64,000 nt of DNA from Alphaproteobacteria bacterium (GCA_965222315.1 OZ244951.1:1999893-2063892); one strand, 5' to 3'. Numbered from the stretch's first letter, positions 6,970-41,624 are shown. The notes: generated from the letters alone by a model not told the origin. Numbers and translations: made by a program.

Positions 6970-7061
6970 CGGGCAGACTCCAAGGCGGGCGTGACGGTAT
7001 AGACGGCGTGACGAAGGCGCACTGCCCAAAATGACGGCAATTCGTTAAGAGTGTTCTCACC

Positions 7062-7730
7062 ATGCCAATGCTTTTTCACCTCCCACTTTCCCCTTTCTGC
7101 CGCAAGGTCCGCTTGGTCGCGGCGGAAAAGAGCGTTGGCGTTGAGCTTCAGGTTGAGGAGCCCTGGCGGCGGAACGAAGAGTTTCTGGCGCTGAACCCGG
7201 CCTGTGTCGTGCCGGTGTGGGTGGAGGACGATGGGTCGGTACTCGCCGAGTCGTCTGCGATCTGCGAGTACCTGGACGATATTGACATGAGCGCCAGCCT
7301 GCTGGGCGATACGCCCGGCGACCGGGCCGAGACACGGCGGCTGGCAGCTTGGTTTGACATCAAGTTCTATCGGGAAGTCACCGACTATCTGTACGGCGAG
7401 CGCGTGTTAAAGCGTATCCGCCGGACGGGCGAGCCCAACTCCGCCGCCATTCGCGCCGGTCGGCAGAACATCACCTATCACCTGGACTATATCGCCTGGC
7501 TGACGGAGCGGCGGAACTGGCTGGCGGGCGGCAGGCTCAGCCTTGCGGATCTTGCCGCGGCTGCCCAATTGTCGACTCTCGACTATCTGGGCGAGGTGCC
7601 GTGGGACCATTCTGAAGGCGCGAAGGTCTGGTATCAGCGGGTCAAGTCCCGCCCTAGCTTCCGCACCCTGCTGGCCGATTCGGTGCCCGGCTTCCCGCCA
7701 CCCGCTCACTACGCTGATTTGGACTTTTAG
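7062..7730 (+). CDS. Glutathione S-transferase family protein
   Basis: 222 aa with an N-terminal thioredoxin-like GST domain (LFHLPLSPFCRKVRL...ALNPACVVPVW...SSAICEYL) and a helical C-terminal domain. Confidence 0.75.
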   Translation: MPMLFHLPLSPFCRKVRLVAAEKSVGVELQVEEPWRRNEEFLALNPACVVPVWVEDDGSVLAESSAICEYLDDIDMSASLLGDTPGDRAETRRLAAWFDIKFYREVTDYLYGERVLKRIRRTGEPNSAAIRAGRQNITYHLDYIAWLTERRNWLAGGRLSLADLAAAAQLSTLDYLGEVPWDHSEGAKVWYQRVKSRPSFRTLLADSVPGFPPPAHYADLDF

Positions 7731-10985: not shown

Positions 10986-11169
10986 TTATAAAATTGTGAA
11001 TAGCAACATATGGTTGCTGCATTACTCTCCTGATTATGCCAGATTAATGTTCCGGTTTAGGCCGCCATTAGAATGTGCTAGAGCCGTGCGCGGTTTGCGT
11101 GACCAATTTCATAGGTGGGCAGCACACGGTAAGGGCATATAGGCGTTGTTCATATGGAGAGTTGCGACA

Positions 11170-14100
11170 ATGACAATAGATCAAAACAATAGCGGCGTCT
11201 CTGCAACGTCCGGTTCCGGCGGCGGCTTCCTTTCCGGTGAGGTAATCGTTCGCTTTGGCGACAGCAGCCTGAGCCAGGAGGCGAAAAGCGCCCTCCGCGA
11301 TTCTGTTGGCGCAGAATTGGTGTCGTCCACCCAGAAATGGGGTTTCGAGCTCTGGCAGTTTGATGGTGTTGCAACTGATGTCGCCATCGAGCAATTGCAT
11401 GCAAGCGGCGTTGCGGACTACGCCGAGTATGTCCAGGCCAACTATGTGCTTACGGCGGCGGACTTTGAAGCCGAAGCCACGATCCCGACAGACCCGCAGT
11501 TCGGCAACCTCTGGGGCCTGAACAATACGGGCCAATCCAACGGCACCGTCGATGCGGACATCGATGCGCCGGAAGCCTGGGATGTCAGCACAGGCGCGGG
11601 CGTCGTCGTTGCCGTGATCGACAGCGGCGTCGATTACAACCATCCCGATCTGATGAACCAGATGTGGATCAATACCGGCGAGATTGCGGGCAACGGTATC
11701 GACGACGACAATAACGGCTTCGTCGATGACTATTATGGCTACGACTTCGCCAATGACGATGGCGACCCATGGGACGACGACAGCCACGGCACGCACGTCG
11801 CGGGCACCATCGCCGCCCAGGCAAACAATGGGACGGGCATCACGGGTGTAGCCTACGACGCCGATATTATGGCGCTGAAGTTCCTGGATGCTACCGGCTC
11901 CGGCAGCACTTTCGATGCGATCCGCGCGATTGAATATGCAACGCTGATGGGAGCCGACATTACCAATAACAGCTGGGGCGGCGGCGGCTTTTCTCAGGCG
12001 CTCTACGACGCAATTGATTTGTCGGGACAGGGTGGTTCGTTGTTCGTCGCGGCTGCCGGCAATGGCGGCGCGGATCAAATTGGCGACAACAATGACAACC
12101 TGCCGCACTATCCGTCCAACTATGACTTGAGCAACCTCATTTCGGTTGCTGCCACCGACCGGAATGACAATCTGACGTCGTTCTCGAATTTTGGCGCAAC
12201 TGCCGTGGACCTTGCGGCCCCCGGCAGTTCCATCCTCAGCAGCGTGCCTGGCGGCGGTTACGCATGGTTCAACGGCACGTCGATGGCGACACCTCACGTC
12301 GCGGGCGTTGCTGCTTTGCTGCTCGCCAGCGAGCCGGGCCTGACGCCGGAACAGGTCAAAGACCGCATTCTGGACTCGGTCGATCCGCTTCCCGGTCTGG
12401 ATGGCATTACCGTGACGGGCGGCCGCCTGAACGCCGCCAATACGCTTGCACCGCCGCAGCCGGGCTCGATTTCCGGCACGGTTTGGGACGATGCCGACAA
12501 TGACGGTGTGCAGGATGCTGGCGAGGCTGGCCTGTCCGGCTGGACCGTATTCTTGGATGCCAACCAGAACGGTAGTCTGGACGGGGGGGAAGCCACCGCA
12601 ACCACCAATGGAGCCGGGGACTACACGTTCTCCAATGTTGCCCCTGGCTCTTATCAGGTGCAGCAGGTTGTGCAGAGCGGCTGGACGCAGACAGCGCCAC
12701 TTTTTGCGGGAAATTATGCCTATTCAGACAGCAATAGTGCAGGCGGGCCTGCCTATAACTGGTTCGACATTTCCGGTGTCGGCACGCAGATTGCGCTGAC
12801 TGACGATTCATTCGCGACGGTTGCCTTGCCCTTCTCGTTCGATTTTTATGAGCAGACTGAAACGTCGGTGAAGATTTCCTCCAACGGATACCTGACCTTC
12901 GGCGCGGACGGAACGGACTACAGCAACGAAGCCATCCCCAGTGCGACGGACCCGGACGCGATTATCGCGCCGTTCTGGGATGACCTGAACCCGGGGAATG
13001 GCGGCAACATTTACTATTACGATGACGCAGCCAACAACCGCTTCATTGTGGAATATGACAGCATCCAACCCTATGCCGGTTCGGGCAACTATACCTTCCA
13101 GGCGATCCTGAATGCGGACGGCAGCATCGGATTCCAATACCAGGCGATGAGCGGGACGCTAAATAGCGCAACCATCGGTATCGAAAATTACGCCGGCAAT
13201 GGTGGGTTGCAGGTCGCCTACAACGCCAACTACGTCCAGAATGGCCTTGCTGTGCTGATCGACGATGCGGCGGGTCAGCCGACTTTTAACGCAGTTACGG
13301 TGTCCAGCGGCCAGGCCGTCACGGGCGCCGACTTCGGCAACCACGATCCAAGCGGCGGCGGTGGTGGAAACCCCACCGACGACACGTTTATCGGCGGCGC
13401 AATCGACAATGTGTTCGACGGCGGTGGCGGCGATGACTCATTTTTGCTGCGGTACGGTAACGACACGGCTACCGGCGGCACGGGCGCGGATGAGTTCAAG
13501 ATTGACGGCCGCTTCGTCAACGATGGGGATGCGCACACCATTACCGACCTCACCTTCGGCGATGGTGACACGTTGGTGCTCCGGTTCTTCGAGCCGAACT
13601 CGTTCAGCAACGCGCCCGATCCTTCCAACCATCTGAATATCGGCAATAATGGTCGCACCGCAACGATCGACAGTATCGAGGACATCGTCGAAGCTCATGA
13701 CCATGGCGTTATGCAGGCATCCGACTCGGGCGACGGCGATACGCTGCTCAGCATCAGCGTTGCTGGTGATGAGGTGACTGTTGAACTGGACGGCATTTCC
13801 TTTGCCTCGCTCGGCATTGGCGGCGGTCCTCCGGTCGATCCATCGCCCGGCGATGATAGTTTTATTGGTGGCGGGGCGGATAATACCTTCCTGGGCTGGG
13901 GCGGGGACGACGACTTCCTGTTGCGCTATGGCAACGATACGGCTACCGGCGGCACAGGCGCGGACACGTTCAAGTTCGATGGCCGCTACGTCAACGACGG
14001 CGACTCGCACACCGTCACCGACCTCAATTTTGCCGAGGGCGACGTGATGATCATGCGCTTCTTTGAGACCGGCACGTTTGACAATGCGGTGGACCCGTCT

Positions 14101-14283
14101 AACCACCTGAGCGTCGGAAACAGTGGCGGCACTGCGACCTTCGACAGCGTAGAGGACATTTTGGAGGCGCACGCCAATGGCGTTATGACCGCTGCGGACG
14201 ACGGCTTTGGCGGTACGAACCTGAGTGTGTCCGTGGGCGGCGAGCTGTTGACCGTTACTCTGGACGGCTGGGATATCATTTAA
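11170..14283 (+). CDS. Subtilisin-like S8 serine peptidase with I9 propeptide, Cna-B/SdrD-like domain and C-terminal RTX-type calcium-binding repeat modules
   Basis: Catalytic triad regions VAVIDSGVDYNHPDL (Asp), HGTHVAGTIAA (His) and GTSMATPHVAGVAALL (Ser). No N-terminal hydrophobic signal peptide. GGxGxDxUx nonapeptides (GGGGDDSFL, GGTGADEFK, GGTGADTFK). The C-terminus ends ...TLDGWDII, resembling a type I secretion signal. Confidence 0.8.
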   Translation: MTIDQNNSGVSATSGSGGGFLSGEVIVRFGDSSLSQEAKSALRDSVGAELVSSTQKWGFELWQFDGVATDVAIEQLHASGVADYAEYVQANYVLTAADFEAEATIPTDPQFGNLWGLNNTGQSNGTVDADIDAPEAWDVSTGAGVVVAVIDSGVDYNHPDLMNQMWINTGEIAGNGIDDDNNGFVDDYYGYDFANDDGDPWDDDSHGTHVAGTIAAQANNGTGITGVAYDADIMALKFLDATGSGSTFDAIRAIEYATLMGADITNNSWGGGGFSQALYDAIDLSGQGGSLFVAAAGNGGADQIGDNNDNLPHYPSNYDLSNLISVAATDRNDNLTSFSNFGATAVDLAAPGSSILSSVPGGGYAWFNGTSMATPHVAGVAALLLASEPGLTPEQVKDRILDSVDPLPGLDGITVTGGRLNAANTLAPPQPGSISGTVWDDADNDGVQDAGEAGLSGWTVFLDANQNGSLDGGEATATTNGAGDYTFSNVAPGSYQVQQVVQSGWTQTAPLFAGNYAYSDSNSAGGPAYNWFDISGVGTQIALTDDSFATVALPFSFDFYEQTETSVKISSNGYLTFGADGTDYSNEAIPSATDPDAIIAPFWDDLNPGNGGNIYYYDDAANNRFIVEYDSIQPYAGSGNYTFQAILNADGSIGFQYQAMSGTLNSATIGIENYAGNGGLQVAYNANYVQNGLAVLIDDAAGQPTFNAVTVSSGQAVTGADFGNHDPSGGGGGNPTDDTFIGGAIDNVFDGGGGDDSFLLRYGNDTATGGTGADEFKIDGRFVNDGDAHTITDLTFGDGDTLVLRFFEPNSFSNAPDPSNHLNIGNNGRTATIDSIEDIVEAHDHGVMQASDSGDGDTLLSISVAGDEVTVELDGISFASLGIGGGPPVDPSPGDDSFIGGGADNTFLGWGGDDDFLLRYGNDTATGGTGADTFKFDGRYVNDGDSHTVTDLNFAEGDVMIMRFFETGTFDNAVDPSNHLSVGNSGGTATFDSVEDILEAHANGVMTAADDGFGGTNLSVSVGGELLTVTLDGWDII
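13375..14280 (+). repeat. Tandem duplication of a ~150-aa RTX-containing module inside the subtilase gene
   Basis: Unit 1 (DDTFIGGAIDNVFDGGGGDDSFLLRYGNDTATGGTGADEFKIDGRFVNDGDAHTITDL...) and unit 2 (DDSFIGGGADNTFLGWGGDDDFLLRYGNDTATGGTGADTFKFDGRYVNDGDSHTVTDL...) align end to end at roughly 60-65% identity. Confidence 0.6.
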
Positions 14284-16686: not shown

Positions 16687-17748
16687 CTACCCGGCCCGCT
16701 GCAAATCCTGAATTACCTCGCGCAGCGCGCCGGCGTCGGCCTCGTTCTCGACCGGCATGGCGAATTCGATGGACGTGATGCAATCATCGTAGCGCTCATG
16801 CAGTTTGGCGGCGATGGTGTCATAAGTCCCTACAGTGACGAAGTCGTGGTAGAGGTCATCCGGCACCCACGCCTGCATCTCGTCCCAGCGTTGCGCTTTC
16901 GATAGTTGGGCCATCTCCGCTGCGAGGTCGCCATAGCCGTGAAGTTCAAAGGGGCGGCGATAGCTGGGGGTGGATGCGTAGAAGGCGATGCGGGCGCGGG
17001 TCTCATCGATCTTGGCGGCCAGCGCGTCTTCGGTGCGGGCAGCGGCGACCAGGGGTTTCATAGCGACCTGAAAGTGGTCGAGACTGCGACCGGCCTTGGC
17101 CGCCCCGCGCTCGGCCGCCGGTTGCATCACTTCCTTGATGTAGCGCGGCGTGCATACGGGGTGCGGCCGCATTCCATCCGCACACTCGCCGGAAATCCGG
17201 CACATGACTTCGTTTACCACGGCGACGTGGATCGGCGGCGGCGGGTGGTCGATGGGGCCCGGATCGAACAGCGGCACCATCAGCGAGAGATTGTAGCGCT
17301 CGCTCTCATAGTTAAGCTTTTCGCCCGTCTGCCACGTGTGCCAGACAGCCCGGACCGCGCCGATATAGTCCCGCATCCAGGGGCCGGGCGGGTGATACTC
17401 CATGCCGAAGCGGCGCATGATGTGTCCGCGCACCTGGCTGCCGAGGCCGAGCGTGAACCGTCCCTTCGAGAGGCGCTGTAGCGACCAGGCGCTCATGGCA
17501 GTGATGGCGGGCGCCCGTGGAAAGGCCATGGCGACGGAAGTGGCGAGCTTCAGCGTTGACGTGCCAGCCGCGGCGATGGCCATCACCTGGTATGGGTCAT
17601 CCTTGGTTTCCTCCACCACCAGCGTGTCGTAGCCGAGGTCTTCGACCTGTTTGGCGTCTTCCAGCAGGGTCGAGAGGTCGATGGCCTTGTCCGGCGCACG
17701 GATGCCCGGATCGGTTTTACCGAGGGGGAGATAGGTTTCGACTTTCAT
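16687..17748 (-). CDS. LLM-class (luciferase-like) flavin/F420-dependent oxidoreductase
   Basis: 353 aa of the TIM-barrel luciferase-like monooxygenase family. Confidence 0.7.
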   Translation of the reverse strand: MKVETYLPLGKTDPGIRAPDKAIDLSTLLEDAKQVEDLGYDTLVVEETKDDPYQVMAIAAAGTSTLKLATSVAMAFPRAPAITAMSAWSLQRLSKGRFTLGLGSQVRGHIMRRFGMEYHPPGPWMRDYIGAVRAVWHTWQTGEKLNYESERYNLSLMVPLFDPGPIDHPPPPIHVAVVNEVMCRISGECADGMRPHPVCTPRYIKEVMQPAAERGAAKAGRSLDHFQVAMKPLVAAARTEDALAAKIDETRARIAFYASTPSYRRPFELHGYGDLAAEMAQLSKAQRWDEMQAWVPDDLYHDFVTVGTYDTIAAKLHERYDDCITSIEFAMPVENEADAGALREVIQDLQRAG

Positions 17749-19061
17749 GAGCGTTGTGGCGTTTCCGTATTGGTTAGCGGTGGCGCAAAGAGTTGCACGG
17801 GGTCGGAAATACCCCGCAAGCGAAAGGAACCCAGCGCCTCCATCGGATCGTCTAAGAGCGCGGCGACCGGTTCCGTCACCAACAGAGGCCGCCGCAATTC
17901 CTTGGTCATTGTCTCAACCCGGGCCGCCACGTTTACCGCGGGACCGATCACCGTGAAATCCAGGCGGTCAGGCGAGCCGATATTGCCGAAGAACACTTCG
18001 CCCGTGTGGAGCGCCAAGCCAATGCGCAGTGGCTGCCAGCCACCGATTCCGGCCAGCGGTTCCGGCGGTTCGGCAGAGAGACGGGCAATGCGGTCGCGAG
18101 CGTTGCGGGCCGCAGCAAATGCCTGCCGTGCCGTTTCGCGGCGGGCCGTTTCAGGGCCGTTGGTGAAAACCGCGAGCAGCCCGTCACCCATGAATTTCAG
18201 CACTTCTCCACCCTGTTCCTGGATGGCGGCTACCAGCGCTTCGAAATAGGCGTTCAGCAACGCCAGCATATTTTGAGGCGTTAAGCGGCTGGAAAGCTCT
18301 GTGAACCCGCGCATGTCAGACACCAGAACCACCGCGTCGAGAGGCGCGCCCGTGCCGCGGGTAATGGAGCCGTCCAGGACTTGTCGCGCTGCATTTCGGC
18401 CCAGGTAGGCTGTGGCAATATTCTCTGACACCAATAAGGCCATCAATCGCGCCACATGAATGGCGAGCAACCGGACCAGATTGTTGATGATCTCAAACGA
18501 AGGGCCGGAAAGACCGCCCGCCTCCACTGAGGCCATGGTAACCGTCATACTCTCCCGGCGCAGACCTTCGATCGATGTCAGTGGCATCACCAGATAATCT
18601 TTGAAGCCGCGCTCCGCCAATTCGCCCATGATCGGAAACCGCTCCGCCATGGCCGGGTCCCGTGGATCACCATGCAGGGTCTCTCCATGCTCGATGGCTA
18701 GATAGAGCGGGCTCTTAAGGTAAGAGGGATGCTCCAAGGTATCCGGATGAATGCGAATTTCGTCGCAAAGGCCGTCGTCCGCTTCCCAAATCCAGGAGTG
18801 CCCCAGGAGTTGCGGATGCAAGGTACCGGCGGAGAACGCCAATCGGGTCACCGGCAGCCCTGCGGCGACCAGCCGCCAGCAAAACGCTTCGGCCAGATCC
18901 AGCATGTTTCGGCAGAGCAGGGCCTCGCCCAGCAGCCAGGTTTCGACATCCGCTGGTGTGGCCGTGGTCCCGGCAACCGGAGGACCGTTGGCCGCCCGGG
19001 CATTCAGTTCGATATTCGCAGCGTACTGCCGTGGGGCTGGATCGAAACGGTGTGGGTGCAT
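17745..19061 (-). CDS. Class III adenylate/guanylate cyclase with an N-terminal domain of unknown function
   Basis: The C-terminal CYC domain is visible (VVLVSDMRGFTELSS...LKFMGDGLLAVF...IGLHTGEVFFGNIGS...VIGPAVNVAARVE). The N-terminal ~200 aa is unassigned. Its start overlaps the preceding gene's stop by 4 nt. Confidence 0.7.
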   Translation of the reverse strand: MHPHRFDPAPRQYAANIELNARAANGPPVAGTTATPADVETWLLGEALLCRNMLDLAEAFCWRLVAAGLPVTRLAFSAGTLHPQLLGHSWIWEADDGLCDEIRIHPDTLEHPSYLKSPLYLAIEHGETLHGDPRDPAMAERFPIMGELAERGFKDYLVMPLTSIEGLRRESMTVTMASVEAGGLSGPSFEIINNLVRLLAIHVARLMALLVSENIATAYLGRNAARQVLDGSITRGTGAPLDAVVLVSDMRGFTELSSRLTPQNMLALLNAYFEALVAAIQEQGGEVLKFMGDGLLAVFTNGPETARRETARQAFAAARNARDRIARLSAEPPEPLAGIGGWQPLRIGLALHTGEVFFGNIGSPDRLDFTVIGPAVNVAARVETMTKELRRPLLVTEPVAALLDDPMEALGSFRLRGISDPVQLFAPPLTNTETPQRS

Positions 19062-31138: not shown

Positions 31139-33412
31139 CTACTTTGTCTTCGCCTCGTAGACGCCGTCCCAGCCGTCGCCTGGCGGGTCTGCGCGCAGTT
31201 CATTGATGCGCAGGGCATATTCTTCGTAAAGCCCAGTCAGGCCGCCTGGATTGGGCGCTATGTCTTCGGGCGGGCCTTCTTGAGCATATGCTAAGGCGCT
31301 ATCCCAGTCCTGGGCACGGTAGGCGCTGAGCATTGCATCGACATGCGCCTTCGTTCGCGCGAATTGCGGCGTGGCGGCCATCGCGGCATCACCCAGCACG
31401 GTGAATACCCGCACGGCTTGTGTCTTGCCCTTCACTTGCAGCAGATCCAGTTCCAGGTAGGCGAAACCGGGGGCAAGGTTGGCCGTATCCTCCGACACAA
31501 CCAGGTCCGTGCCATACATCTTACTTTGCCCCTCCAGGCGGGAGGCGGTGTTGACCGTGTCGCCCAGGCAGGAATAGTCGAAGCGCAAGTCGCTGCCCAT
31601 ATTGCCGACAACGCAATCGCCCGTGTTAAGGCCCATGCCGATACGTACGGGCGGCAGGGCGCGGCCTTCTTCCGCCGCTTCCGCCTGCCATTCCGGCACC
31701 AGTTCCGCGAGTCTTGCGCGGATGGTTAACGCTGCGCCCACCGCTTGGGTGGCGTGATCGGGCTCGTCCACCGGGGCGTTCCAGAAGGCCATGATCGCAT
31801 CACCCATGTATTTGTCGATGGTGCCGCCGCTCTCCATGATGATGTCGGTCATTGGGGTGAGGAACTTGTTGATAAACTGGGTGAGCTGAATTGGCGTCAT
31901 GCTTTCAGAGATCGGCGTAAACCCTCTTATGTCGCAGAAAAAAAGTGTTAACGGACGGAGTTCTCCGCCCAATTGCGGTTCCTGGCCGGACTCCGCCATG
32001 CGCGAGACCAGCGCCGGGGAAAGGTAGCGCCCGAAGGTAGAACGCACCCGTTGCCGCTCCCTTTCGCTAAGGAGGTATTGAGTGGAGGTAACGACCAGAT
32101 AAACTATCAACGCGCCAACGGCCGGGTAGAGCGGGTCCACCAACAACCGGGCTTCCGAGTAGGCCAGCCATGAGCCAATGCCGCCACCTGCGGCGGCAAC
32201 CAGCCCGATCAGCGCGCAAGGTACCGGTCCCAGCCACGGCAGCAGGAAGACGAACACAAGGCCCATCATACCAAGCCCTAAGAACTCGGCTGCATCTGCC
32301 CAGCCTGGCCGGATCAAGTAATGGCCCAAGATCATCTGCTCAAGTGCCTGAGCATGAACGTAAATTCCCGGTACGCCACTGGTGAGTGATGTGGCGCGGA
32401 GATCCCGCAAACCCGGCGCTGTCGCGCCGATTAGCATGATTTGGCCCTCGACCAGCTCGATGAGCGCTTCCGGTTCTTGCAGCACGCGCCAAGCGGGAAT
32501 CGTGCGTTCGGGGATATCCTCTGAGTAGTGAATCCAGAATTGCGTGTCCTGCGCCATTGGTATTTCGAGTGCGCCGACTCGAAGGAGGTTCAAGCCATAG
32601 AATGCGCCTAGCCGGAACTCGCCCTGTGCATGAGCGGACCGCGCCACCAACGTGCTGGCGCCCTGGGCGACGCGCAGTGCCTCGACGGAGATCGTCGGGA
32701 TAATCGCATCGTCGATTTTCGAGAGCAGGGGCATGCGCCGGACAATCCCATCGCGCTCCGGCAGGTACGAGAAGTTGGCAAAGCCGGTGGCGGCCTCTTC
32801 CAGAACGGCTAGGTTACGGGTGGCGTGATCGAACTTTGGAATTGAATCGATCACGTCCTGATGGCCGGCAAATCCGACGCGCTTGGGCAAAGGTTCGGTG
32901 TTGCCTGCCTCACCGTGAAAGATCATGCCTAAAACACTTGGCGAGTTCGCGATGGCTTCGGCAAGGCGGTCGTCGTGGTCGCGAAGGCTCCGGAGGTGCG
33001 GCGCGATTTGTTCGCGAACTTCCTCCGGCAGTTTCCAGTCGCGGATGACTGTTGCCGGCGATGTGCGGTCTGGCTCAGCAAAAACAATATCAAACCCGAT
33101 CGCAGCAGAGCCGAGCGCGTTGAGATTGTCCACCAGATCAGCCATGATATGCCGCGGCCAGGGCCATTGGCCGAAGCGCCGCAGCGATTCCTCGTCCACG
33201 GCGATGACACGCACCGGGGCGGCCTCGTAGGTGCGGGGCGCGAGTTGTTGATAGCGGTCAAATACAAGGAAACGCGCAATTTTCAGGCCACCAGGATCCG
33301 CCCAACGGAGGGCCAAGGCCGCAAATAGTGCCAGTAACCCAGCAAGTATCACAATACCGCGGCGGCTAAAAATTCGTCGAGTGTGCTTTTTTTCACTCTC
33401 ATTTTTTGCCAT
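31139..33412 (-). CDS. CHASE2 sensor-domain adenylate/guanylate cyclase
   Basis: N-terminal TM segment, periplasmic CHASE2 region and three TM helices, then a class III cyclase domain (FFCDIRGFTPISE...KYMGDAIMAFWNAP...IGMGLNTGDCVVGNMGS...GDTVNTASRLE). Confidence 0.75.
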   Translation of the reverse strand: MAKNESEKKHTRRIFSRRGIVILAGLLALFAALALRWADPGGLKIARFLVFDRYQQLAPRTYEAAPVRVIAVDEESLRRFGQWPWPRHIMADLVDNLNALGSAAIGFDIVFAEPDRTSPATVIRDWKLPEEVREQIAPHLRSLRDHDDRLAEAIANSPSVLGMIFHGEAGNTEPLPKRVGFAGHQDVIDSIPKFDHATRNLAVLEEAATGFANFSYLPERDGIVRRMPLLSKIDDAIIPTISVEALRVAQGASTLVARSAHAQGEFRLGAFYGLNLLRVGALEIPMAQDTQFWIHYSEDIPERTIPAWRVLQEPEALIELVEGQIMLIGATAPGLRDLRATSLTSGVPGIYVHAQALEQMILGHYLIRPGWADAAEFLGLGMMGLVFVFLLPWLGPVPCALIGLVAAAGGGIGSWLAYSEARLLVDPLYPAVGALIVYLVVTSTQYLLSERERQRVRSTFGRYLSPALVSRMAESGQEPQLGGELRPLTLFFCDIRGFTPISESMTPIQLTQFINKFLTPMTDIIMESGGTIDKYMGDAIMAFWNAPVDEPDHATQAVGAALTIRARLAELVPEWQAEAAEEGRALPPVRIGMGLNTGDCVVGNMGSDLRFDYSCLGDTVNTASRLEGQSKMYGTDLVVSEDTANLAPGFAYLELDLLQVKGKTQAVRVFTVLGDAAMAATPQFARTKAHVDAMLSAYRAQDWDSALAYAQEGPPEDIAPNPGGLTGLYEEYALRINELRADPPGDGWDGVYEAKTK

Positions 33413-33519
33413 ATGTGACCACCATCAATAGATTTTCCGGCTGAATGTGCGTATATTCGTATGAAGCTGGTTTGATTCGATGTTAAAGAAACTGGCGTTG
33501 GACCTTTGGGCGTAACCTA

Positions 33520-35037
33520 GTGAGCCAAGCAAGGCAGACCATTAATCGCAAATACTCGCAACCTGCGCCTGCGCGGGTGGCGATGCTTGTTTGCGTCCTG
33601 GCGGTTGCATTGTTCTCGTTTCTCATGGCGGGCGCTCCGGTACAAGCAGCCCCGGTTATTGGCTCGGCGTCAACAGTTGTACGTGACGTGAAAGGGCAAT
33701 TGGAGCGCAATTGGCGCGAGGTCGTCATTCACGACGACGTTCATCAGGACGAATTGATTAAGACGGGATCCGCTAGTGCAGCCCGACTAGTGTTTGCCGA
33801 CCGCACCGACTTTATGATCGGCGCAGAGTCCGAGGTTGTGCTGGACAAGTTCATTTATGATGCGACTTCAAACTCCGGGCAGTTGGTTCTGCGGGCAACC
33901 AAGGGTCTGATGAAGTTCCGCACGGGCAGTATGTCCAGCCGTTCATACCGTATCGACACGCCGGTCGCGACCGTCGGCGTACGCGGCACCGAGTTTGTAC
34001 TCCAGGTCTTCGAGGGCGGCGGCTCGTACATCAAAGTGATATCGGGCGAAGTGGTCGTGACGGATCACCGGAACAAATCGCTTTCTGTAAAAGCCGGTGA
34101 AACGGCAATTGTGTTCCCAGAATCCGATGCCCGCGCCGCGGCCGGTCCACGCTTGATCGCCGCAGGGGACTTTGCCCTGAGCGACCAGACTCGCGAAATG
34201 ATCGCACAGATCGTCTTTTCGGAAAGTACGACACAGACTCAACTGACAACCCAGGGGCAGCAAGCGGCTTCCTTTTCCGGCAATACGATCCAACTCAGTG
34301 CGATTGCCAATGGTGGCAACTCTCCAATTGCGGTCAATCCTGTAAAGCCTGCGCCACAGATTAAAACGGGATCCTCCGGCTCCTCCTTGCAGTCGCTTGT
34401 CCCTTCGCGGCAAGTTTTCGTGCCCCGCGGCTTACCCGGTTCATTCTTCAATAGCGGTTTCGACTCGGGGTTGAGCGGCTGGACATTTAGAGGCTCGGGG
34501 TCGGTGACTGTCATTCCTGATCCAGCTGATTCATTGAACAATGTGGCCCAACTGACAACCGGATCGCCAGTTTCGCTGGAGCAGACTTTTGAGCCGCTTG
34601 ATGAACCGTTCTCCATCAAGTTTTGGCGGCGGTTCTTGAGCGACAAGGGCGTGTTGTGCGTTTACGTCGAACCGGTAGAAGGTGATGCGGGTGAAAGCGC
34701 CAGCGCGAAGAATGATCCCGAACCCGCTTGTGATTCGGGCGCCCTGGCGGCTTTCGCATCGGTCGGTGCCGAACTTGCGATGCAGGAAGTAAGCATCGAT
34801 GTTCTGGATGAAGCGCTGTACGGTCTCGATCAATTGTTGCTGCGGCTGGTTTTCACCGCGGAAGAGGGTGGAGTTCAGGTGTTGCTGGACGACCTGACGA
34901 CGGTGCCCTATGTCGAGGGAGAGCCAGGTTCGACCGAGGTTCCGCTGGCACCGTCTATCGTATTTGTGGCCGGTACCTTCATCGTTGCTGGTCTGGCTGC
35001 TCGGTGGAGGCGGCGTCGGTCACAGGCCCTCTGGTAG
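33520..35037 (+). CDS. FecR-domain exported protein with a C-terminal VPLPA-CTERM-like sorting tail
   Basis: N-terminal signal/TM segment and a FecR-like beta domain (...ATVGVRGTEFVLQV...GEVVVTD...). The C-terminus is ...EVPLAPSIVFVAGTFIVAGLAARWRRRRSQALW (motif + TM + Arg-rich). Divergent from the CHASE2 cyclase. Confidence 0.55.
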   Translation: MSQARQTINRKYSQPAPARVAMLVCVLAVALFSFLMAGAPVQAAPVIGSASTVVRDVKGQLERNWREVVIHDDVHQDELIKTGSASAARLVFADRTDFMIGAESEVVLDKFIYDATSNSGQLVLRATKGLMKFRTGSMSSRSYRIDTPVATVGVRGTEFVLQVFEGGGSYIKVISGEVVVTDHRNKSLSVKAGETAIVFPESDARAAAGPRLIAAGDFALSDQTREMIAQIVFSESTTQTQLTTQGQQAASFSGNTIQLSAIANGGNSPIAVNPVKPAPQIKTGSSGSSLQSLVPSRQVFVPRGLPGSFFNSGFDSGLSGWTFRGSGSVTVIPDPADSLNNVAQLTTGSPVSLEQTFEPLDEPFSIKFWRRFLSDKGVLCVYVEPVEGDAGESASAKNDPEPACDSGALAAFASVGAELAMQEVSIDVLDEALYGLDQLLLRLVFTAEEGGVQVLLDDLTTVPYVEGEPGSTEVPLAPSIVFVAGTFIVAGLAARWRRRRSQALW

Positions 35038-35078
35038 TAGAGCCCGCAGCAATGAGTAACAAATCAAGTCAGCGACCT

Positions 35079-35107
35079 AGAGCCGGGCGGAGCAAATGCC
35101 CGGCTCT
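35079..35107. terminator. Bidirectional terminator hairpin between convergent FecR-like and cysteine synthase genes
   Basis: AGAGCCGGGC-GGAGCAAAT-GCCCGGCTCT: perfect 10-bp stem with a 9-nt loop. Confidence 0.45.
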
Positions 35108-35122
35108 ACGTGCTTCGAGGTT

Positions 35123-36205
35123 TTAGCCCATCTGATAGCCGGGCGTGGACTGAGAAATGGCGATCTCGTCGTTGCTCATTTCCTCCTCAATCCCCTCGAA
35201 TAGAGGCGTGGAGAGGTAGCGCTCGCCGGTGTCCGGCAGCATGGCTAGGATGACTGAGCCAGGCTCCGCCTTTTCCGCAATCTGCATGGCGATGGCGAGG
35301 GATGAGCCGCCGGAAATGCCGGTGAGAATGCCTTCCTTGGACGCCAATTCTTTTGCCCATTTAATGCCATCCGGGCCGGCGACGGGTATCAATTCGTCGT
35401 AAAGATTGTTGTCTATCGATTCCTGCAGGACGTAGGGGATGAAGTCCGGGGTCCAGCCCTGGATGGGATGGGGTTCGAAGGCAGGGTGGCTCACGGCTGG
35501 GGAGTTGGCCGCATTACGCTTCTGGGCATGGCCGCTGCCGACGATCTGCGCATTGGCAGGCTCACTCAGGATGATTTTCGTATCGGGCCGTTCCTTACGC
35601 AGCACCCGGCCAACGCCGGTGACAGTGCCGCCGGTACCATAGCCGGTCACGAAATAGTCCAGGCGGTCGCCAGCGAAGTCCGTCATGATCTCCCTTGCCG
35701 TCGTCGTCTCGTGAATGTCGGCATTGGAGGCGGTTTCGAACTGGCTTGCCAGGAACCAGCCGTTCTTCTCTGCCAGTTCGACGGCCTTGTTGTACATGCC
35801 GAAGCCCTTTTCGGCCCGCGGGGTCAGCACCACTTTCGCGCCGAACATTCGCATCAGCTTGCGCCGTTCAATGGAGAAACTGTCGGCCATGGTGATGACC
35901 AGAGGATAGCCTTTTTGTGCGCACACCATGGCAAGGCCGATGCCGGTGTTGCCACTGGTGGCTTCCACAACAGTCTGGCCGGGCTTGAGCGCGCCACTGC
36001 GCTCGGCAGCCTCGATGATGTTGACGGCGAGTCTGTCTTTGACGGAGGCAGCGGGGTTGAAAAACTCTGCCTTAACGTAGAGCCGGACGCCAGGCGGCGC
36101 GATATTTTTGACTTCGATGCAGGGCGTATTGCCCACGGTTTCGATGATGCCTTCATAAAGGCGGCCGCGGCCCGCGGTGGCGCGGACGTTTGGATCGTTT
36201 GGCAT
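35123..36205 (-). CDS. Cysteine synthase / cystathionine beta-synthase family PLP enzyme
   Basis: PALP-fold signatures (lysine motif SVKDRLA, glycine loop TSGNTGIGLA, ...GISGGSS...) with a ~40-aa C-terminal extension. Start taken at MPNDPN. Confidence 0.75.
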   Translation of the reverse strand: MPNDPNVRATAGRGRLYEGIIETVGNTPCIEVKNIAPPGVRLYVKAEFFNPAASVKDRLAVNIIEAAERSGALKPGQTVVEATSGNTGIGLAMVCAQKGYPLVITMADSFSIERRKLMRMFGAKVVLTPRAEKGFGMYNKAVELAEKNGWFLASQFETASNADIHETTTAREIMTDFAGDRLDYFVTGYGTGGTVTGVGRVLRKERPDTKIILSEPANAQIVGSGHAQKRNAANSPAVSHPAFEPHPIQGWTPDFIPYVLQESIDNNLYDELIPVAGPDGIKWAKELASKEGILTGISGGSSLAIAMQIAEKAEPGSVILAMLPDTGERYLSTPLFEGIEEEMSNDEIAISQSTPGYQMG

Positions 36206-36351
36206 GAGGTTCCTCCAGAAAAGCCGTAATGTGCGGAGCCGCACATTGCGACAGAAGAGGTGGGCAGGGAACCGCAAAGTACCGTCAATACGAAAACCTC
36301 TGGAAACACGGTGCATTTCCAGGGGGTGTAAGCAAATAACCTGAAGAACCG

Positions 36352-37206
36352 TCAGGCTTGGTCGATGATCTTCACGATGAAGTTGGGTAGCGCAAACGAC
36401 GCTACGTGAGTCGCCGGGTTGTAGTATAGGGTCTCGATTCCCAGCGCATCGAAACGGGCCTGGATGGTCTCCAGGCTCTGGTGGCGCAGGTCAGCGTCAT
36501 CTGTTGCCCAGCCGAGCGTCATAAAGCCCAGCGCATAGGTCGGGCAGGAAATGACGTAGCAGCCGGCATCATCAAACAGCGACCGAAAGTGCCTGACAGA
36601 GCTTTTCAATTCATCGCCCTGAACGAACGGCACGCCGTTCTGGGTGACGAGAATACCACCCGGTGTCAGGCAATTTTTACAGTGGCTGTAGAACTCATGC
36701 GTAAAGAGGACAGCGCCCGGTCCAATCGGATCGGTCGAATCGACCAGCACTAAGTCAAACTTCTGGTCGGTCTCGGCGACGAATTTTGCGCCGTCGCCGA
36801 TGACCAGGTTGACCCTGGGATCGTCATAGGCCTGGCCGCAGATGCTGGAGAGGTGCTCTTTCGAGATCTCCACAACACCGCCGTCCAGTTCGACTTCGGT
36901 GACATGCTCGACATCGTGCTTCAGCACTTCTTCCAGCAAACCACCGTCGCCGCCGCCGATGATCAGCACGCGCTTTACAGACCCATGGGCCAGCAGCGGC
37001 ACGTGCGCGAACATCTCGTGGTAGACGAACTCGTCGCCCTCTGTCGTTTGCACGACACCGTCCAACGTCATGAAGCGGCCGAATTTCCGGTTCCGCATGA
37101 TCTTGATGTCCTGAAAGCCGGTATGGCCTTCATAGAGGACTTCTTCGATCTCCAGACGCTGGCCGACTCCGTCGTGCAGGACTTCGTCGAACCAGGTTCC
37201 GCTCAT
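36352..37206 (-). CDS. speE: Polyamine aminopropyltransferase (spermidine synthase)
   Basis: WFDE...GQRLEIEEVLYE...VLIIGGGDGG...VIVDSTDP motifs in about 284 aa. ATGA overlap with the upstream speH. Confidence 0.8.
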   Translation of the reverse strand: MSGTWFDEVLHDGVGQRLEIEEVLYEGHTGFQDIKIMRNRKFGRFMTLDGVVQTTEGDEFVYHEMFAHVPLLAHGSVKRVLIIGGGDGGLLEEVLKHDVEHVTEVELDGGVVEISKEHLSSICGQAYDDPRVNLVIGDGAKFVAETDQKFDLVLVDSTDPIGPGAVLFTHEFYSHCKNCLTPGGILVTQNGVPFVQGDELKSSVRHFRSLFDDAGCYVISCPTYALGFMTLGWATDDADLRHQSLETIQARFDALGIETLYYNPATHVASFALPNFIVKIIDQA

Positions 37207-37784
37207 TTCAGTGCGCTGACCTGCAAGCCGCGGCGATGCTCCGTCAGATTGACGGTCGCCGGAGAGAAGGCTTCCTTCAGCACCTTGATGGCGTTGTAGG
37301 GATTGCAGTCGCCGCACATGAAGATATCCAGCGCTGCAAAGTTCCGCTCCGGCCAGGTGTGAATGCTGATATGGCTCTCGGAGAGAACCACTACGCCGGA
37401 AACGCCGCCATTTGGCTGAAAATGGTGCAGGTCGACGTTCAGGATGGTCGCGCCCGATACAATGGCCGACTTGCGTAACGCAGCCTCCACCGTTTCCAGG
37501 TCGTCCAGATTGGACGCACCGGCCAGATCGATCAGCAGGTGAATACCGGCAAATTCCAGGCCATCTTTCTTCACAAAGAAGTCCAGACGTTCGTCTTCGG
37601 CAGGCGCAACGTACTCCGTCACGCCGGCGGTATGCCTCTGATCAGCCTGATCGCGATCCATACAATGAGGATCGACAACCCGAACGGCTTCGTGTTCTTC
37701 AGGCTGTAGAGCGGACGGGACGTCAAAAGACGACTCGTACCCCGCGGCAACAGCCAGCTCTTCGAAAGTGCGATTATCATTCAT
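37203..37784 (-). CDS. speH: S-adenosylmethionine decarboxylase proenzyme (class 1B)
   Basis: Self-cleavage/active-site region VVLSESHISIHTWPE in a 193-aa protein. Confidence 0.8.
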   Translation of the reverse strand: MNDNRTFEELAVAAGYESSFDVPSALQPEEHEAVRVVDPHCMDRDQADQRHTAGVTEYVAPAEDERLDFFVKKDGLEFAGIHLLIDLAGASNLDDLETVEAALRKSAIVSGATILNVDLHHFQPNGGVSGVVVLSESHISIHTWPERNFAALDIFMCGDCNPYNAIKVLKEAFSPATVNLTEHRRGLQVSALK

Positions 37785-38054
37785 CGCAAATCTCCCGTGA
37801 ACCGGTATTGGGGGGTGGCAGGAAAGGCGCGCCTTATGACGGAAAGGTTCCGGTGGCGCAAGTTATTTCTTCGTACAACATCAAAGATTTTTTTCCTGCC
37901 TGAATGAAGGGCGCATGCGGGCCGCCCATTGCCCTGAAAACAGGCAGTGAAGCAAGCGGCGCAAACCTGCCTGATAGGCAAGAAATAGCGCACTGAGTGC
38001 GCAATTCAAGGGAAGATATCTAGCCCGTGCAGTATGCGGTACCCGGGCGACGCT

Positions 38055-38723
38055 TTAGGTCCGGCGGTTCCGGCGACGACCGAGGCGAAGACTCCCGGAC
38101 GTCAGCACCGCTGCAGCGAGAAGGCTGATGGAAGCTGGCAGTGGCACCGTGGTTGGGGCTGGCACCGGCGGGGAGGCCGTGCCGATCAGTTGGTGACCGG
38201 CGTTTTGATGGGAGACGATGGAGCGGCTTTCCGCAACGTTGGTGTCAACCCAGTATTGCTCGTCCGGCGTGCCCAGATCACTAGCGCAAAAGTTCGTACC
38301 GATACACCAGGCAAAAGCAGCGCCGGCAGACCTCCCTGATATGGAAAACACGCTATAGACGCCGGAGTAGGAAGGTTCGAACCGGAACTCCATCTCGGTG
38401 GCGGTCGCGAACATGCCATGGCCATAATTGGCCGGACCTTCGATATCGTATGTCAGTATGGAGCTTGCGGCCGTAGCAGCCGCAGACTGCGAACCGGTGG
38501 CAATCGCCAAATTCCAGCCGACAATGTCACCTGGGGCCAACAGACCGATGGTGCCGTCGGTTGTAATCGTGCCTTGCAGCCGCGCCGACGGGCCGAAACC
38601 GGTTGCCGCGCCCGTAAATATCCGGTCGACGGAATACGAGATGCTGGCGGCGCTACCAGCCGTTGGCAGCACCGCAATTGCGCAGCAAAACGCTGCCACG
38701 AGCCTGTTCATCTGACCTGCCAT
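38055..38723 (-). CDS. Secreted protein with VPLPA-CTERM sorting domain (paralog A)
   Basis: Signal peptide, conserved core (GTITTDGTIG...FAWCIGTNFC..DLGTPDE), and the C-terminus ...TVPLPASISLLAAAVLTSGSLRLGRRRNRRT. Confidence 0.55.
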   Translation of the reverse strand: MAGQMNRLVAAFCCAIAVLPTAGSAASISYSVDRIFTGAATGFGPSARLQGTITTDGTIGLLAPGDIVGWNLAIATGSQSAAATAASSILTYDIEGPANYGHGMFATATEMEFRFEPSYSGVYSVFSISGRSAGAAFAWCIGTNFCASDLGTPDEQYWVDTNVAESRSIVSHQNAGHQLIGTASPPVPAPTTVPLPASISLLAAAVLTSGSLRLGRRRNRRT

Positions 38724-38955
38724 CTCCTGCTATCGCCTAGTCAAGCGCCGGATGCCGGAAGCGTGGCCCAGCGCATGGCACAACTATAAAGAGATATTCA
38801 GGTGAGAAAACAGCAATATAAATGTTGAATTATTCAGGTACGACACATCGGGGCCGGAACTGTGGATAACCTCGATCCGGCCAATTCTCCCGCAGCCCCG
38901 GTTGGCCTCTGCGCGCGATGCGGCGGGCGGCCGCATTACCGGGTCCAGTGTGGAT

Positions 38956-39645
38956 TTAAGCGCGGAGGGGAGGGGACGGCAGTCTGGGGGCTTGTTTTCG
39001 GCGGCGCCGCGCTTGGCGCAAGCCGCTGCCTGCGGCGGCCATCAAGCCGGCGCTGGCAAGTAACAGGATGCCGCCCGGCAATGGCACCGGCGCTGCCAGG
39101 TTTTCCCGGTCTGCCGTACCATATTCCGCGACGGTCCGGCTCTCGTCTTTGTCGAAGCGGATCAGGACCAGTTCATCGGGAATACCGAAATCGTTGTTGC
39201 AGAAGTTGGTTCCGATGCACCAGGCGAAGAAATTGGGAAGCGAGGTGTCTCCGGTAACCGAACTGCCCCCCCAGATGCCGAAAATGGAGTAGAGCGAGCT
39301 GAAGGCAGGCCCGAAAACAAAGTCCAGCCCGGACGGGCCAGCGAACAATCCCTGGTTGTACAAGGTCGGGTCCACTGTTTGGAAGTCGAGCAGTGAGTTG
39401 GAGGGATCGACCGACAGTTGATAAGGGCCGGTCGTCAGCGAAAGGCTCCAATCAAGGATGTTGGACGGCGTAAGGAAGCCAAATGTACCGTCCGTGGTGA
39501 TCGTGCCTTTGACTTGGGCCGGCGGGCCAAAGACTGTTTTACCGGGCGTCAAGGTTCGTTCGACCGAGTAAATGACGTTCGCGGCAGCGCGTGTGCCGTA
39601 CACGGTCAGCACCAAGGCTGCCAATAAAATTCCAAGCTTCCGCAT
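38956..39645 (-). CDS. Secreted protein with VPLPA-CTERM sorting domain (paralog B)
   Basis: Signal peptide MRKLGILLAALVLTVYGTRAAA, the same conserved core (GTITTDGTFG...FAWCIGTNFC..DFGIPDE), and the C-terminus ...PVPLPGGILLLASAGLMAAAGSGLRQARRRRKQ. Confidence 0.55.
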   Translation of the reverse strand: MRKLGILLAALVLTVYGTRAAANVIYSVERTLTPGKTVFGPPAQVKGTITTDGTFGFLTPSNILDWSLSLTTGPYQLSVDPSNSLLDFQTVDPTLYNQGLFAGPSGLDFVFGPAFSSLYSIFGIWGGSSVTGDTSLPNFFAWCIGTNFCNNDFGIPDELVLIRFDKDESRTVAEYGTADRENLAAPVPLPGGILLLASAGLMAAAGSGLRQARRRRKQAPRLPSPPLRA

Positions 39646-39848
39646 GGTCACCCCTACCGTATCCGTACTCATAATGGCACGCCGACGCGCATACCAAAAT
39701 ATCCGTTACGCATACAATTATAGGGAATGGAGGTGGCGGTCAAACCCTCATGTATTGGGTATGGGGTGTCATAGTTGATAGTGCATACACATATATTCGG
39801 CTTCTTACAGGGGTTGGGCAGGGCGGGCTAACCCAACCGGGCGATGGT

Positions 39849-41624
39849 CTAAAACGCGTCTGCGCTCATCTCCGCCACCAGCGCGCCGCCTGTAACGATG
39901 GGGCGTTCCATGGCGGTGCCTTCGGGGATCAGTTGCTCTGCGAAAAAGCGGGCGACCTTGCGTTTCTGCTTGGCAAAGGCGCTGTCGTCGCCGACCGTCG
40001 CCAGCGCCGAATTCGCCATGAGCCAGCCGCCCGTCACATAGCCAGCCAGTTTCATATAGCTGGTCGCGCCTGCCAGGGCCTCGCCTGGCTGTGTGCCCAA
40101 ATGCGCCACCATCCAGGCGGTGCAGCGCTCCAAACTTTCCAGGCCCTCAGCCAGGGGCGCGCGGATTGCGGCCAGATCGGCATTGTCGTGATTGGCCAGT
40201 TCGGCGACCGTTGCGGCAATCTCCGCTGCGACTGCCGCCATGGCCTCGCCGCCGTCGCGGCCGAGCTTCCGCCCGACAAGGTCGATGGACTGGATGCCGT
40301 TGGTGCCCTCGTAGATCGAGGAAATCCGAACATCGCGCAGGTGCTGTGCGGCTCCCGTTTCTTCGATAAAGCCCATGCCGCCGTGCACCTGGACGTTGGT
40401 AGAGGTAACCTCCAGACCCACATCGGTGCTCCAGGCCTTGACGATCGGGATCAGTAAATCGACCCGCCGCTGCGCCAGCTTGCGTGCCTCCGGATCGGGC
40501 AGGCGCTTGGCCAAGTCCAGGCCGGCTGCCGCAGTATAGGCGAGGCAGCGCATGGCTTCCACTTGGGCGCGCATCCGCAAGAGCATGCGGCGCACGTCCG
40601 GGTGATGGATGATGGTCACCGGATCACGGCTGCCATTGACGGCGTCGCGCATCTGCACCCGGTCTTTGGCAAAGGCGACGGCCTGTTGGTAGGCGCGCTC
40701 CGCCACCGAGAGGCCCTGCAGGCCGACGCCCAGGCGGGCGTTGTTCATCATGGTGAACATGTACTCAATGCCGCGGCATTCCTCGCCAATCAGGTAGCCG
40801 ACAGCGCCGTCGTTCTCGCCAAATAGCATAACGGCGGTGGGGGAGGCATGGATCCCGAGTTTGTGCTCCAGGGAGCCGGGGCGCAGATCATTTCGCTGAC
40901 CGAGAGAGCCGTCATCGTTCACCAAGAATTTCGGCACGACAAAAAGGGAAATGCCTTTGATGCCCTCCGGCGCGCCCTCGGTGCGGGCCAAGACCAGATG
41001 AACGATATTCTCTGTCATCTCGTGGTCGCCATAGGAGATGTAAATCTTCTGACCGGAGATTCGGTAGTGATCACCCTCTTTCACCGCCTTGGTCCGCAGC
41101 GCGCCGACGTCGGAGCCCGCCTGCGGCTCGGTCAAATTCATGGTACCGGACCAAGTGCCGGTAATCATGTTCTCCAGGTATTTGTCCTTCTGCGCGGGCG
41201 AGCCATGCACCTCCAGCAGTTCGACCGCGCCTTGCGTCAGCAGCGGCCCGAGGGAAAAGCCCAGATTGGCCGAGCCCCAGATCTCGTTCAGCACCGTGCC
41301 TACCAGCCATGGCAGCCCTTGACCGCCACGCTCGGGATCGAAGACCGGGCCGTTCCAGCCGCCATCCACATAGGCCTTATAGGCTTCCGGAAAGCCATCG
41401 GGCATCCGCACAACGCCATTTTCCAGGCGCGCGCCCTGGGTATCGCCGACCCGAAGAAGCGGCGCCAGCACGCCGCTTGCGAACTTATCCGCTTCGTCCA
41501 GCACTGCGTCGACCAATTCGGTCGAAAGATCTTCAAAGCCTTCCAGCGCTAGCACATTTTCCAGCCCCGCTATTTTGCTGAGGGTAAAGCGGATATCGGC
41601 GAGCGGGGCGGCATAGTTGGACAT
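39849..41624 (-). CDS. Acyl-CoA dehydrogenase (long, ~590-aa FadE-like class)
   Basis: ACAD N, middle and C-terminal domains (..YISYGDHE..., IYEGTNGIQ) plus the C-terminal extension typical of ~600-aa ACADs. Confidence 0.8.
   Translation of the reverse strand: MSNYAAPLADIRFTLSKIAGLENVLALEGFEDLSTELVDAVLDEADKFASGVLAPLLRVGDTQGARLENGVVRMPDGFPEAYKAYVDGGWNGPVFDPERGGQGLPWLVGTVLNEIWGSANLGFSLGPLLTQGAVELLEVHGSPAQKDKYLENMITGTWSGTMNLTEPQAGSDVGALRTKAVKEGDHYRISGQKIYISYGDHEMTENIVHLVLARTEGAPEGIKGISLFVVPKFLVNDDGSLGQRNDLRPGSLEHKLGIHASPTAVMLFGENDGAVGYLIGEECRGIEYMFTMMNNARLGVGLQGLSVAERAYQQAVAFAKDRVQMRDAVNGSRDPVTIIHHPDVRRMLLRMRAQVEAMRCLAYTAAAGLDLAKRLPDPEARKLAQRRVDLLIPIVKAWSTDVGLEVTSTNVQVHGGMGFIEETGAAQHLRDVRISSIYEGTNGIQSIDLVGRKLGRDGGEAMAAVAAEIAATVAELANHDNADLAAIRAPLAEGLESLERCTAWMVAHLGTQPGEALAGATSYMKLAGYVTGGWLMANSALATVGDDSAFAKQKRKVARFFAEQLIPEGTAMERPIVTGGALVAEMSADAF

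Follow-up and report, generated by a model that had tools for sequence, protein, structure and literature searches.

The genome of an Alphaproteobacteria bacterium carries a divergent gene pair, encoding a CHASE2-sensor class III cyclase and an exported FecR-domain protein, that comparative sequence evidence identifies as a genuine, conserved and probably functional pair and not a chance juxtaposition. The pair lies in a stretch of 64,000 nucleotides (GCA_965222315.1, OZ244951.1:1999893-2063892), referred to here, at its full length, as the window. The cyclase gene occupies positions 31139–33412 on the minus strand (an open reading frame (ORF) of 757 amino acids) and the partner gene 33520–35037 on the plus strand (an ORF of 505 amino acids), with an intergenic spacer of 107 base pairs (bp) between them (33413–33519) that has a GC content of 43%, compared with around 62% for the window. 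An earlier sequence-only reading of the window had called both of these ORFs, a minus-strand CHASE2 cyclase and a short AT-rich spacer, and all of these calls proved correct. It had also regarded the pairing with CHASE2 as an unusual departure from the pairing of FecR-type domains with extracytoplasmic function (ECF) sigma factors; the pairing is instead recurrent and already published (PMC5498481, PMC9239204, PMC5192318). The association of CHASE2 sensors with FecR-domain genes is therefore known, and what is new is the build of the partner: a FecR-type domain, a disordered linker, a fast-evolving β-sandwich of the carbohydrate-binding module (CBM) kind and a divergent PEP-CTERM-like tail.

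The divergent pair was kept in all seven orthologous loci that we compared, namely the window, L001–L003 and L084–L086; in the last three the upstream gene is cut at the contig end, with an N terminus that is clearly that of the cyclase. L001 and L002 are syntenic with the window over the entire length and are for that reason uninformative alone, and in L003, L085 and L086 the flanks differ and the pair is still kept. We then considered 80 cyclase loci obtained from a one-genome-per-species scan with a cyclase alignment (37–66% identity). A PF04773 gene lay within 8 kb of the cyclase in 29 of them, as detected with a hidden Markov model (HMM) of the FecR domain, and Pfam PF04773 confirmed every one of the 33 FecR neighbours, a set that includes those of the window and L001–L003. 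The two genes were divergent, co-directional with the FecR gene upstream, convergent with it downstream, or had one to three genes between them, and this varied arrangement argues for selection for proximity rather than inherited synteny. Of the 80 loci retrieved by a reverse scan of metagenomes, seeded with the FecR motif TPVATxGxRG from an eight-sequence alignment, 20 had a CHASE2 cyclase near the FecR gene; among the 45 that were at least 8 kb long, the number was 16. Co-occurrence in related genomes, on which the earlier proposal depended, was thus found in all three sets of loci. Pairwise FecR-domain distances were correlated with the corresponding cyclase distances (r = 0.77, permutation p about 5e-4).

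The cyclase consists of a short cytoplasmic N terminus, a first transmembrane helix, a CHASE2 sensory domain predicted to be periplasmic (residues 29–385; 32258–33328, minus strand; PF05226, E 6.3e-53), three further transmembrane helices, a cytoplasmic catalytic domain (residues 487–667; 31412–31954, minus strand; Guanylate_cyc PF00211, E 5e-19) and a conserved C-terminal extension of 90 amino acids. With about four hydrophobic segments in all, it has CHASE2 between an N-terminal transmembrane helix and a cluster of such helices, the arrangement that defines CyaD1/CyaK-type receptors, and the same two-domain architecture was seen in more than 3,700 homologues. Between the window and L003, the whole protein is 83% identical and the periplasmic part of CHASE2 79% identical.

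The catalytic domain aligned with solved adenylate cyclases, including CyaB of Pseudomonas aeruginosa (3r5g, E 9e-34), 1wc0 and 2w01. D494, D538, K534, S614, N621 and R625 were invariant in the cyclase alignment; as in class III cyclases generally, the two aspartates would bind metal, K534 and S614 recognize the substrate, and N621 and R625 stabilize the transition state. Class IIIb cyclases of the adenylate type are marked by a lysine paired with threonine or serine, and S614 occupies the position of the threonine in CyaB. Judged by these residues, the enzyme is predicted to be a catalytically competent class IIIb-type adenylate cyclase. As the CHASE2 enzymes of Sinorhizobium meliloti are termed AC/GCs (adenylate/guanylate cyclases) by those who work on them (PMC13001267), the window enzyme may by analogy possess dual specificity.

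The FecR-like region of the partner matched PF04773 in the HMM search that had been set beforehand as a check (residues 80–178; E 6.3e-14; 52.6 bits, cut-off 24). A search of 5.8 billion clusters yielded no more than 13 full-length homologues, every one of them metagenomic, and we used their alignment together with an AlphaFold model (mean predicted local distance difference test score (pLDDT) of 55, rising to around 80 for the C-terminal domain) to dissect the protein. Residues 1–43 (33520–33648) form a signal-peptide region recognizable in the alignment, with a hydrophobic helix at residues 17–37 in the model. Cleavage is predicted after VQA and before a conserved APVIGSAS, and the signal peptide contains no lipobox. 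Translation may begin at an ATG at 33583 (Met22), from which several of the homologues are called, instead of the GTG at 33520; the spacer would then be 170 bp, and with either start the protein has a signal peptide that ends in the conserved QA|AP.

The signal peptide is followed by a FecR-type β-domain (residues 44–215; 33649–34164), delimited by the PF04773 match, the pattern of identity and a profile match to Protein Data Bank entry 5IX9 described below. A short helix then leads into a low-complexity disordered linker (residues 216–310; 34165–34449), recognized by its poor alignment and by pLDDT values below 50 at residues 222–308. Next is a β-sandwich of the jelly-roll type (residues 311–470; 34450–34929), modelled with a pLDDT of around 80, for which Foldseek returned CBM61, CBM4-2, CBM16 and a porphyran-binding CBM with target-normalised TM-scores of 0.6–0.7. 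With medium confidence, the modelled sandwich resembles carbohydrate-binding modules. The protein ends in a sorting-type tail (34930–35034) defined from the alignment, in which EVPLAPS precedes a hydrophobic helix (residues 478–501 in the model) and the arginine cluster RWRRRR.

This combination of E[VI]P[LV]xP[SA], hydrophobic helix and arginine cluster was kept in 13 of 13 homologues, so that the earlier description of the partner as an exported protein with a sorting tail stands on both counts. An exhaustive HMMER search seeded with the 213 C-terminal residues retrieved 69 relatives. Those of the β-sandwich that fall outside the family of the partner are PEP-CTERM proteins with canonical VPEP...RRR ends, and, among 47 relatives scanned, NF038120 was present in 36 and TIGR02595 in 26. 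The window tail itself did not reach significance with TIGR02595, TIGR03370 or any other Pfam or NCBIfam model, and a Pfam and NCBIfam scan of three C-terminal tails likewise gave no significant match. It has in common with PEP-CTERM and VPLPA-CTERM proteins a short proline motif, a hydrophobic helix and an arginine cluster behind a homologous β-sandwich, whereas its motif, E-V-P-L-x-P-S, is unlike either PEP or VPLPA. Because no family-model threshold was reached, we grade the tail, from its sequence features, as a divergent variant of the PEP-CTERM/VPLPA-CTERM-like signal and not as a certified member. The union of a FecR domain with this sandwich-and-tail cassette was found only in the 13-member family. 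There was no evident exosortase candidate among the polytopic membrane ORFs of the window, as judged by a heuristic and by synteny with L001 and not by an HMM scan of all ORFs; these ORFs correspond to the MFS, CopD and OpgC genes of L001, plus one unassigned protein of 293 amino acids.

Elsewhere in the window, two minus-strand ORFs (38055–38723 and 38956–39672) encode paralogous small secreted proteins of 222 and 238 amino acids that end in a VPLPA- or VPLPG-type tail, a hydrophobic helix and an arginine cluster. One of them gave a weak match to VPLPA-CTERM/XDP1 (E about 0.1), and nothing else was found by Pfam or NCBIfam. They are missing from the syntenic L001 and L002, and L084 has two genes for proteins of 218–219 amino acids at that place. 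Given these tails, a VPLxP-type sorting system seems to serve several proteins of the genome.

The two halves of the partner differ sharply in conservation. Within its family, the FecR domain is 66–82% identical, compared with 27–41% for the C-terminal domain, and for the window and L003 the values are 74% and 33%, respectively. This pattern fits a constant module that would face a conserved partner and a variable module that would face something that changes. In base composition, the region from 32000 to 40000 has a GC content of 57–59%, compared with 61–66% elsewhere in the window, and, among the genes checked, third-position GC is lowest in the FecR-like gene (0.63 versus 0.73–0.81 in the flanking metabolic genes).

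FecR-domain partners in the wider set of cyclase loci are built differently. Bradyrhizobium-type partners have 1300–2000 amino acids, with cadherin-like, Big_9 and RTX repeats behind an N-terminal FecR domain; RTX and type I secretion features were present only in L037, L040, L052, L056 and L077, and type I secretion genes (ABC, HlyD or TolC-family) adjoin the adhesin partner in L040, L077 and L052. Giant FecR-type adhesins were seen in L037, L045, L047, L050, L056 and L059 (Bradyrhizobium) and in L040, L077 and L052, their genes lying directly upstream of the CHASE2 cyclase gene or with type I secretion genes in between. In L008, L012, L029, L070 and L041, a further gene, conserved and placed between those for the cyclase and the FecR protein, encodes N-terminal TPRs and a Slam-like β-barrel (PF04575 SlipAM / DUF2860). 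CHASE2-cyclase/FecR pairs come with this gene in Elusimicrobiota and in several Alphaproteobacteria. Among the metagenome loci, L134, L139, L142, L145, L151, L153 and L160 encode proteins with FecR-type N termini of up to 1450–2950 amino acids, and several, for example L154, L122 and L137, have two to four FecR-domain genes in tandem.

A profile built from the 33 cyclase-linked FecR domains matched a single solved structure, PDB 5IX9, the RIN plug of the adhesin MpIBP, over around 80 residues (E 2.8e-11); the window partner as a single sequence gave a weak match (E 0.06). RIN stays in the periplasm and plugs a TolC-like pore while the rest of the RTX adhesin is displayed outside (PMC5550230), and it has been the template for the LapA retention module (bioRxiv 10.1101/198937). 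The profile match suggests a relationship between PF04773 and the retention modules of adhesins. Across these loci the partner is linked to surface export in three ways: by type I secretion, by Slam-like barrels and, in the window, by the PEP-CTERM-like tail. The FecR-type domain is expected to remain in the periplasm, where CHASE2 lies.

The spacer contains one further conserved element. A palindrome-like box, TGTGACCACCATCAAT (33414–33429), begins 2 nucleotides from the cyclase start codon. Its consensus, TGTGAyCAyCrTCAAT, is the single conserved island in an alignment of the seven diverged spacers, the remainder of which is unalignable, with the half-sites TGTGA and TCAAT present in seven and six of the seven, respectively. 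The CRP consensus is TGTGA-N6-TCACA and that of FNR TTGAT-N4-ATCAA, and we take the core GTGA-N6-TCAA to be a hybrid of the two, a box of CRP/FNR family type. The extended motif occurs once in the window, and the box is a putative regulator-binding site. A TATAT element lies exactly 22 nucleotides past the box in seven of seven loci; in the window it reads TATATT (33452–33457, plus strand), a candidate −10 element suggested by the fixed spacing and an invariant TAT. Relative to the start deduced from TATATT, the box would be centred at around −41.5/−42.5 of a rightward promoter, as in a class II CRP-type promoter directed towards the partner gene. A consensus scan also offers another candidate promoter, TTGCCA-17-TAGATT, at 33406–33434. 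Downstream of the partner gene in L003 and L085, a 2-oxoglutarate (2OG)-Fe(II) oxygenase and a Crp-family regulator (cNMP_binding plus HTH_Crp_2; 6360–7070 and 4514–5224, respectively, both plus strand) replace the cysteine synthase and spermidine genes, the regulator being two genes downstream.

Several described systems resemble the pair. In S. meliloti, clr, cyaD1 (SMc02176), smc02177, which encodes a FecR-domain protein, and smc02178 have consecutive locus tags (PMC5498481). As in the window, an alphaproteobacterial CHASE2 cyclase stands beside an extracytoplasmic PF04773 protein, with a Crp-family regulator and its box (PMC5498481). However, clr is adjacent there and absent from the window, and SMc02177, compared here by its description, is presented solely as a FecR-domain protein, with no CBM-like domain or sorting tail reported. 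Signalling by S. meliloti CHASE2 cyclases requires the outer-membrane protein NsrA, through which an indirect protein signal has been reported to act (PMC7529298). A cyclic AMP (cAMP) cluster of Campylobacterota comprises a CHASE2 cyclase, a phosphodiesterase, a FecR-domain protein of the outer membrane as well as a TPR protein (PMC9239204). There, too, the cyclase is clustered with a FecR envelope protein, and the TPR protein parallels, and may correspond to, the TPR plus Slam-like genes of the wider loci; the window pair, by contrast, has neither a phosphodiesterase nor a TPR/barrel gene alongside, and its partner has a C-terminal sorting tail. In the 'BiofilmReg' operon of Burkholderia, the gene for a LysM-FecR protein has that for a response regulator on one side and that for a CHASE2 histidine kinase on the other (PMC5192318). 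The likeness is an exported FecR-domain protein encoded beside a CHASE2 sensor; the differences are the histidine kinase output, LysM in place of the CBM-like domain and tail, and an operon instead of a divergent pair. The RTX adhesins plugged by RIN also have a periplasmic β-sandwich at the N terminus of a surface-displayed protein, whereas the window partner is small, Sec-dependent and without RTX repeats, a type I secretion signal or adjacent type I secretion genes.

Taking these results together, we tentatively favour a model in which the two genes encode an envelope signalling module with feedback, composed of an inner-membrane CHASE2 receptor and a Sec-secreted co-sensor. The constant N-terminal FecR-type domain of the partner would stay in the periplasm and dock on or near CHASE2, and the variable half, with its CBM-like sandwich and PEP-CTERM-like anchor, would face outwards, towards a ligand that is most likely an envelope or environmental glycan. 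What this half binds, or how it is anchored, would modulate cyclase activity, and the resulting cAMP would act through a CRP/FNR-family regulator encoded elsewhere. That regulator, positioned at the spacer box, could feed back on the locus, switching on the partner gene and at the same time covering the leader of the cyclase gene. That FecR proteins are linked to CHASE2 whatever the output, a kinase (PMC5192318) or cyclases (PMC9239204), argues for a role on the sensor side.

Other observations weigh against this model. The mirror-tree correlation is equal for the catalytic domain and CHASE2, which indicates co-inheritance rather than a specific interface; we therefore dropped the idea, tried on these data, of CHASE2-specific co-evolution. 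In around 64% of the related loci the cyclase gene has no FecR gene nearer than 8 kb, so a locally encoded partner is not strictly required by the cyclase. The CBM-like label comes solely from the fold of a medium-confidence model. The box overlaps the ribosome-binding site of the cyclase gene, whose Shine–Dalgarno sequence on the minus strand (GGTGG, GGTGA or GAGGG, 6 nucleotides before the ATG) coincides with the central six bases of the box; this overlap explains part of the conservation, but not that of both half-sites. In the wider loci the FecR genes lack the box upstream, which makes it family-specific, and tblastn with the L003 and L085 regulators detected no Crp homologue in the window. 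Finally, smc02177 of S. meliloti is dispensable for perception of the plant signal tested (PMC5498481).

This last observation belongs to the main alternative, rather unlikely in our estimation, in which the partner is a cAMP-controlled effector associated with the surface or with exopolysaccharide and not a component of the sensor. The cyclase would then sense alone or with another outer-membrane protein, and a cAMP-bound CRP-family regulator would turn on the partner gene through the box; the partner would be exported, processed at its PEP-CTERM-like tail and act at the cell surface by means of its CBM-like domain. Such an order of events has a precedent in smc02177, a Clr/cAMP target with a Clr box, on which the phenotype downstream (secondary-infection control) depends and perception does not (PMC5498481). 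It also agrees with the class II distance between a CRP/FNR-type box and the candidate −10 element facing the partner gene, with the Crp-like regulator near the pair in L003 and L085, and with a C-terminal cassette that is common to PEP-CTERM surface proteins. The S. meliloti test, however, used only the signal perceived by CyaK and not one perceived by CyaD1, and its authors advise re-examining other signals (PMC5498481). A cAMP output hardly explains why FecR genes also accompany CHASE2 histidine kinases (PMC5192318), or why the FecR domain is as tightly conserved as CHASE2 while the presumed effector half drifts, and the box is restricted to the close family. Of the periplasmic signal-to-cAMP/cGMP module proposed in the sequence-only reading, the conserved and probably functional pair stands and the direction of signalling stays a proposal, the conserved CRP/FNR-type box being compatible with a partner that is at least partly output. 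We consider it still less probable that what the cyclase monitors is its partner's export route, in its biogenesis or its occupancy. The FecR/RIN domain would in that case be merely a periplasmic plug or retention element, which CHASE2 would read as engaged, cleaved or released, and cAMP would report the status of the surface protein and not an external ligand. The profile match to the RIN plug (5IX9; PMC5550230; bioRxiv 10.1101/198937), the type I secretion genes or Slam-like barrels adjoining the partner in related loci and the different sorting device of the window partner would all accord with this. Yet no export machinery is adjacent to the window pair, the window protein has a Sec signal peptide that RTX adhesins do not have, the 5IX9 match is limited to the N-terminal half of the domain, and the reading of plug state by CHASE2 is hypothetical.

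It is highly improbable that the two genes are mere neighbours or that the partner works as a classical anti-sigma factor together with an ECF sigma factor whose gene lies elsewhere. The genes that flank the pair in the window are unrelated metabolic genes, and the wholly syntenic L001 and L002 would by themselves allow coincidence, but the linkage outlasts changes of flank and spans distant lineages in several orientations. With E. coli FecR of the FecI–FecR–FecA system, the partner shares the periplasmic PF04773 β-domain and, in the favoured model, protein–protein signalling across the periplasm. Unlike FecR, it has neither a cytoplasmic anti-sigma domain nor the FecR N- and C-terminal accessory domains, and a cleavable signal peptide takes the place of an N-in membrane anchor. 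We rejected the anti-sigma reading on these grounds: Pfam finds only PF04773, the N terminus is a signal peptide with a QA|AP site, and no gene for an ECF sigma factor or a TonB-dependent receptor or transducer adjoins the partner in any orthologous locus, where it stands beside the cyclase, a PALP enzyme, a 2OG oxygenase or the Crp-like regulator.

We consider a broader reading of the locus unlikely. The FecR/RIN-type domain may be a general periplasmic 'foot' of surface proteins that reach the surface by type I secretion, through Slam-like barrels or, in the window, by an exosortase-type tail. CHASE2 would read the state of this foot, such that binding to, or pulling on, the surface protein, in the window by way of a glycan-binding CBM-like domain, would be converted into cAMP across the envelope.

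Two further ORFs of the window deserve mention. A 438-amino-acid ORF (17745–19061, minus strand) has a C terminus that appears to resemble a second class III nucleotide cyclase (FRLRGISDPVQLF). A 1045-amino-acid ORF (11146–14283, plus strand) has a third-position GC of 0.71, below that of its neighbours, and may encode a large secreted protein.

In 2016, what CHASE2 domains sense was still given as unknown (PMC5192318), and our analysis came upon no structure of such a domain. A recurrent extracytoplasmic partner that is inherited together with CHASE2 receptors offers the best means at present of learning how they are fed. The window offers a compact two-gene version of this association in which the constant FecR-type and variable CBM-like domains are cleanly separable, opening the way to simple tests of binding and activity. 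Should the partner be only a cAMP-regulated surface protein, the locus would be an ordinary member of a described association. Cyclase-linked FecR domains, the RIN plug and the three surface-export routes combine into a testable unifying hypothesis and, if the periplasmic-foot reading is true, would provide a class of input for the long-orphan CHASE2 domain.

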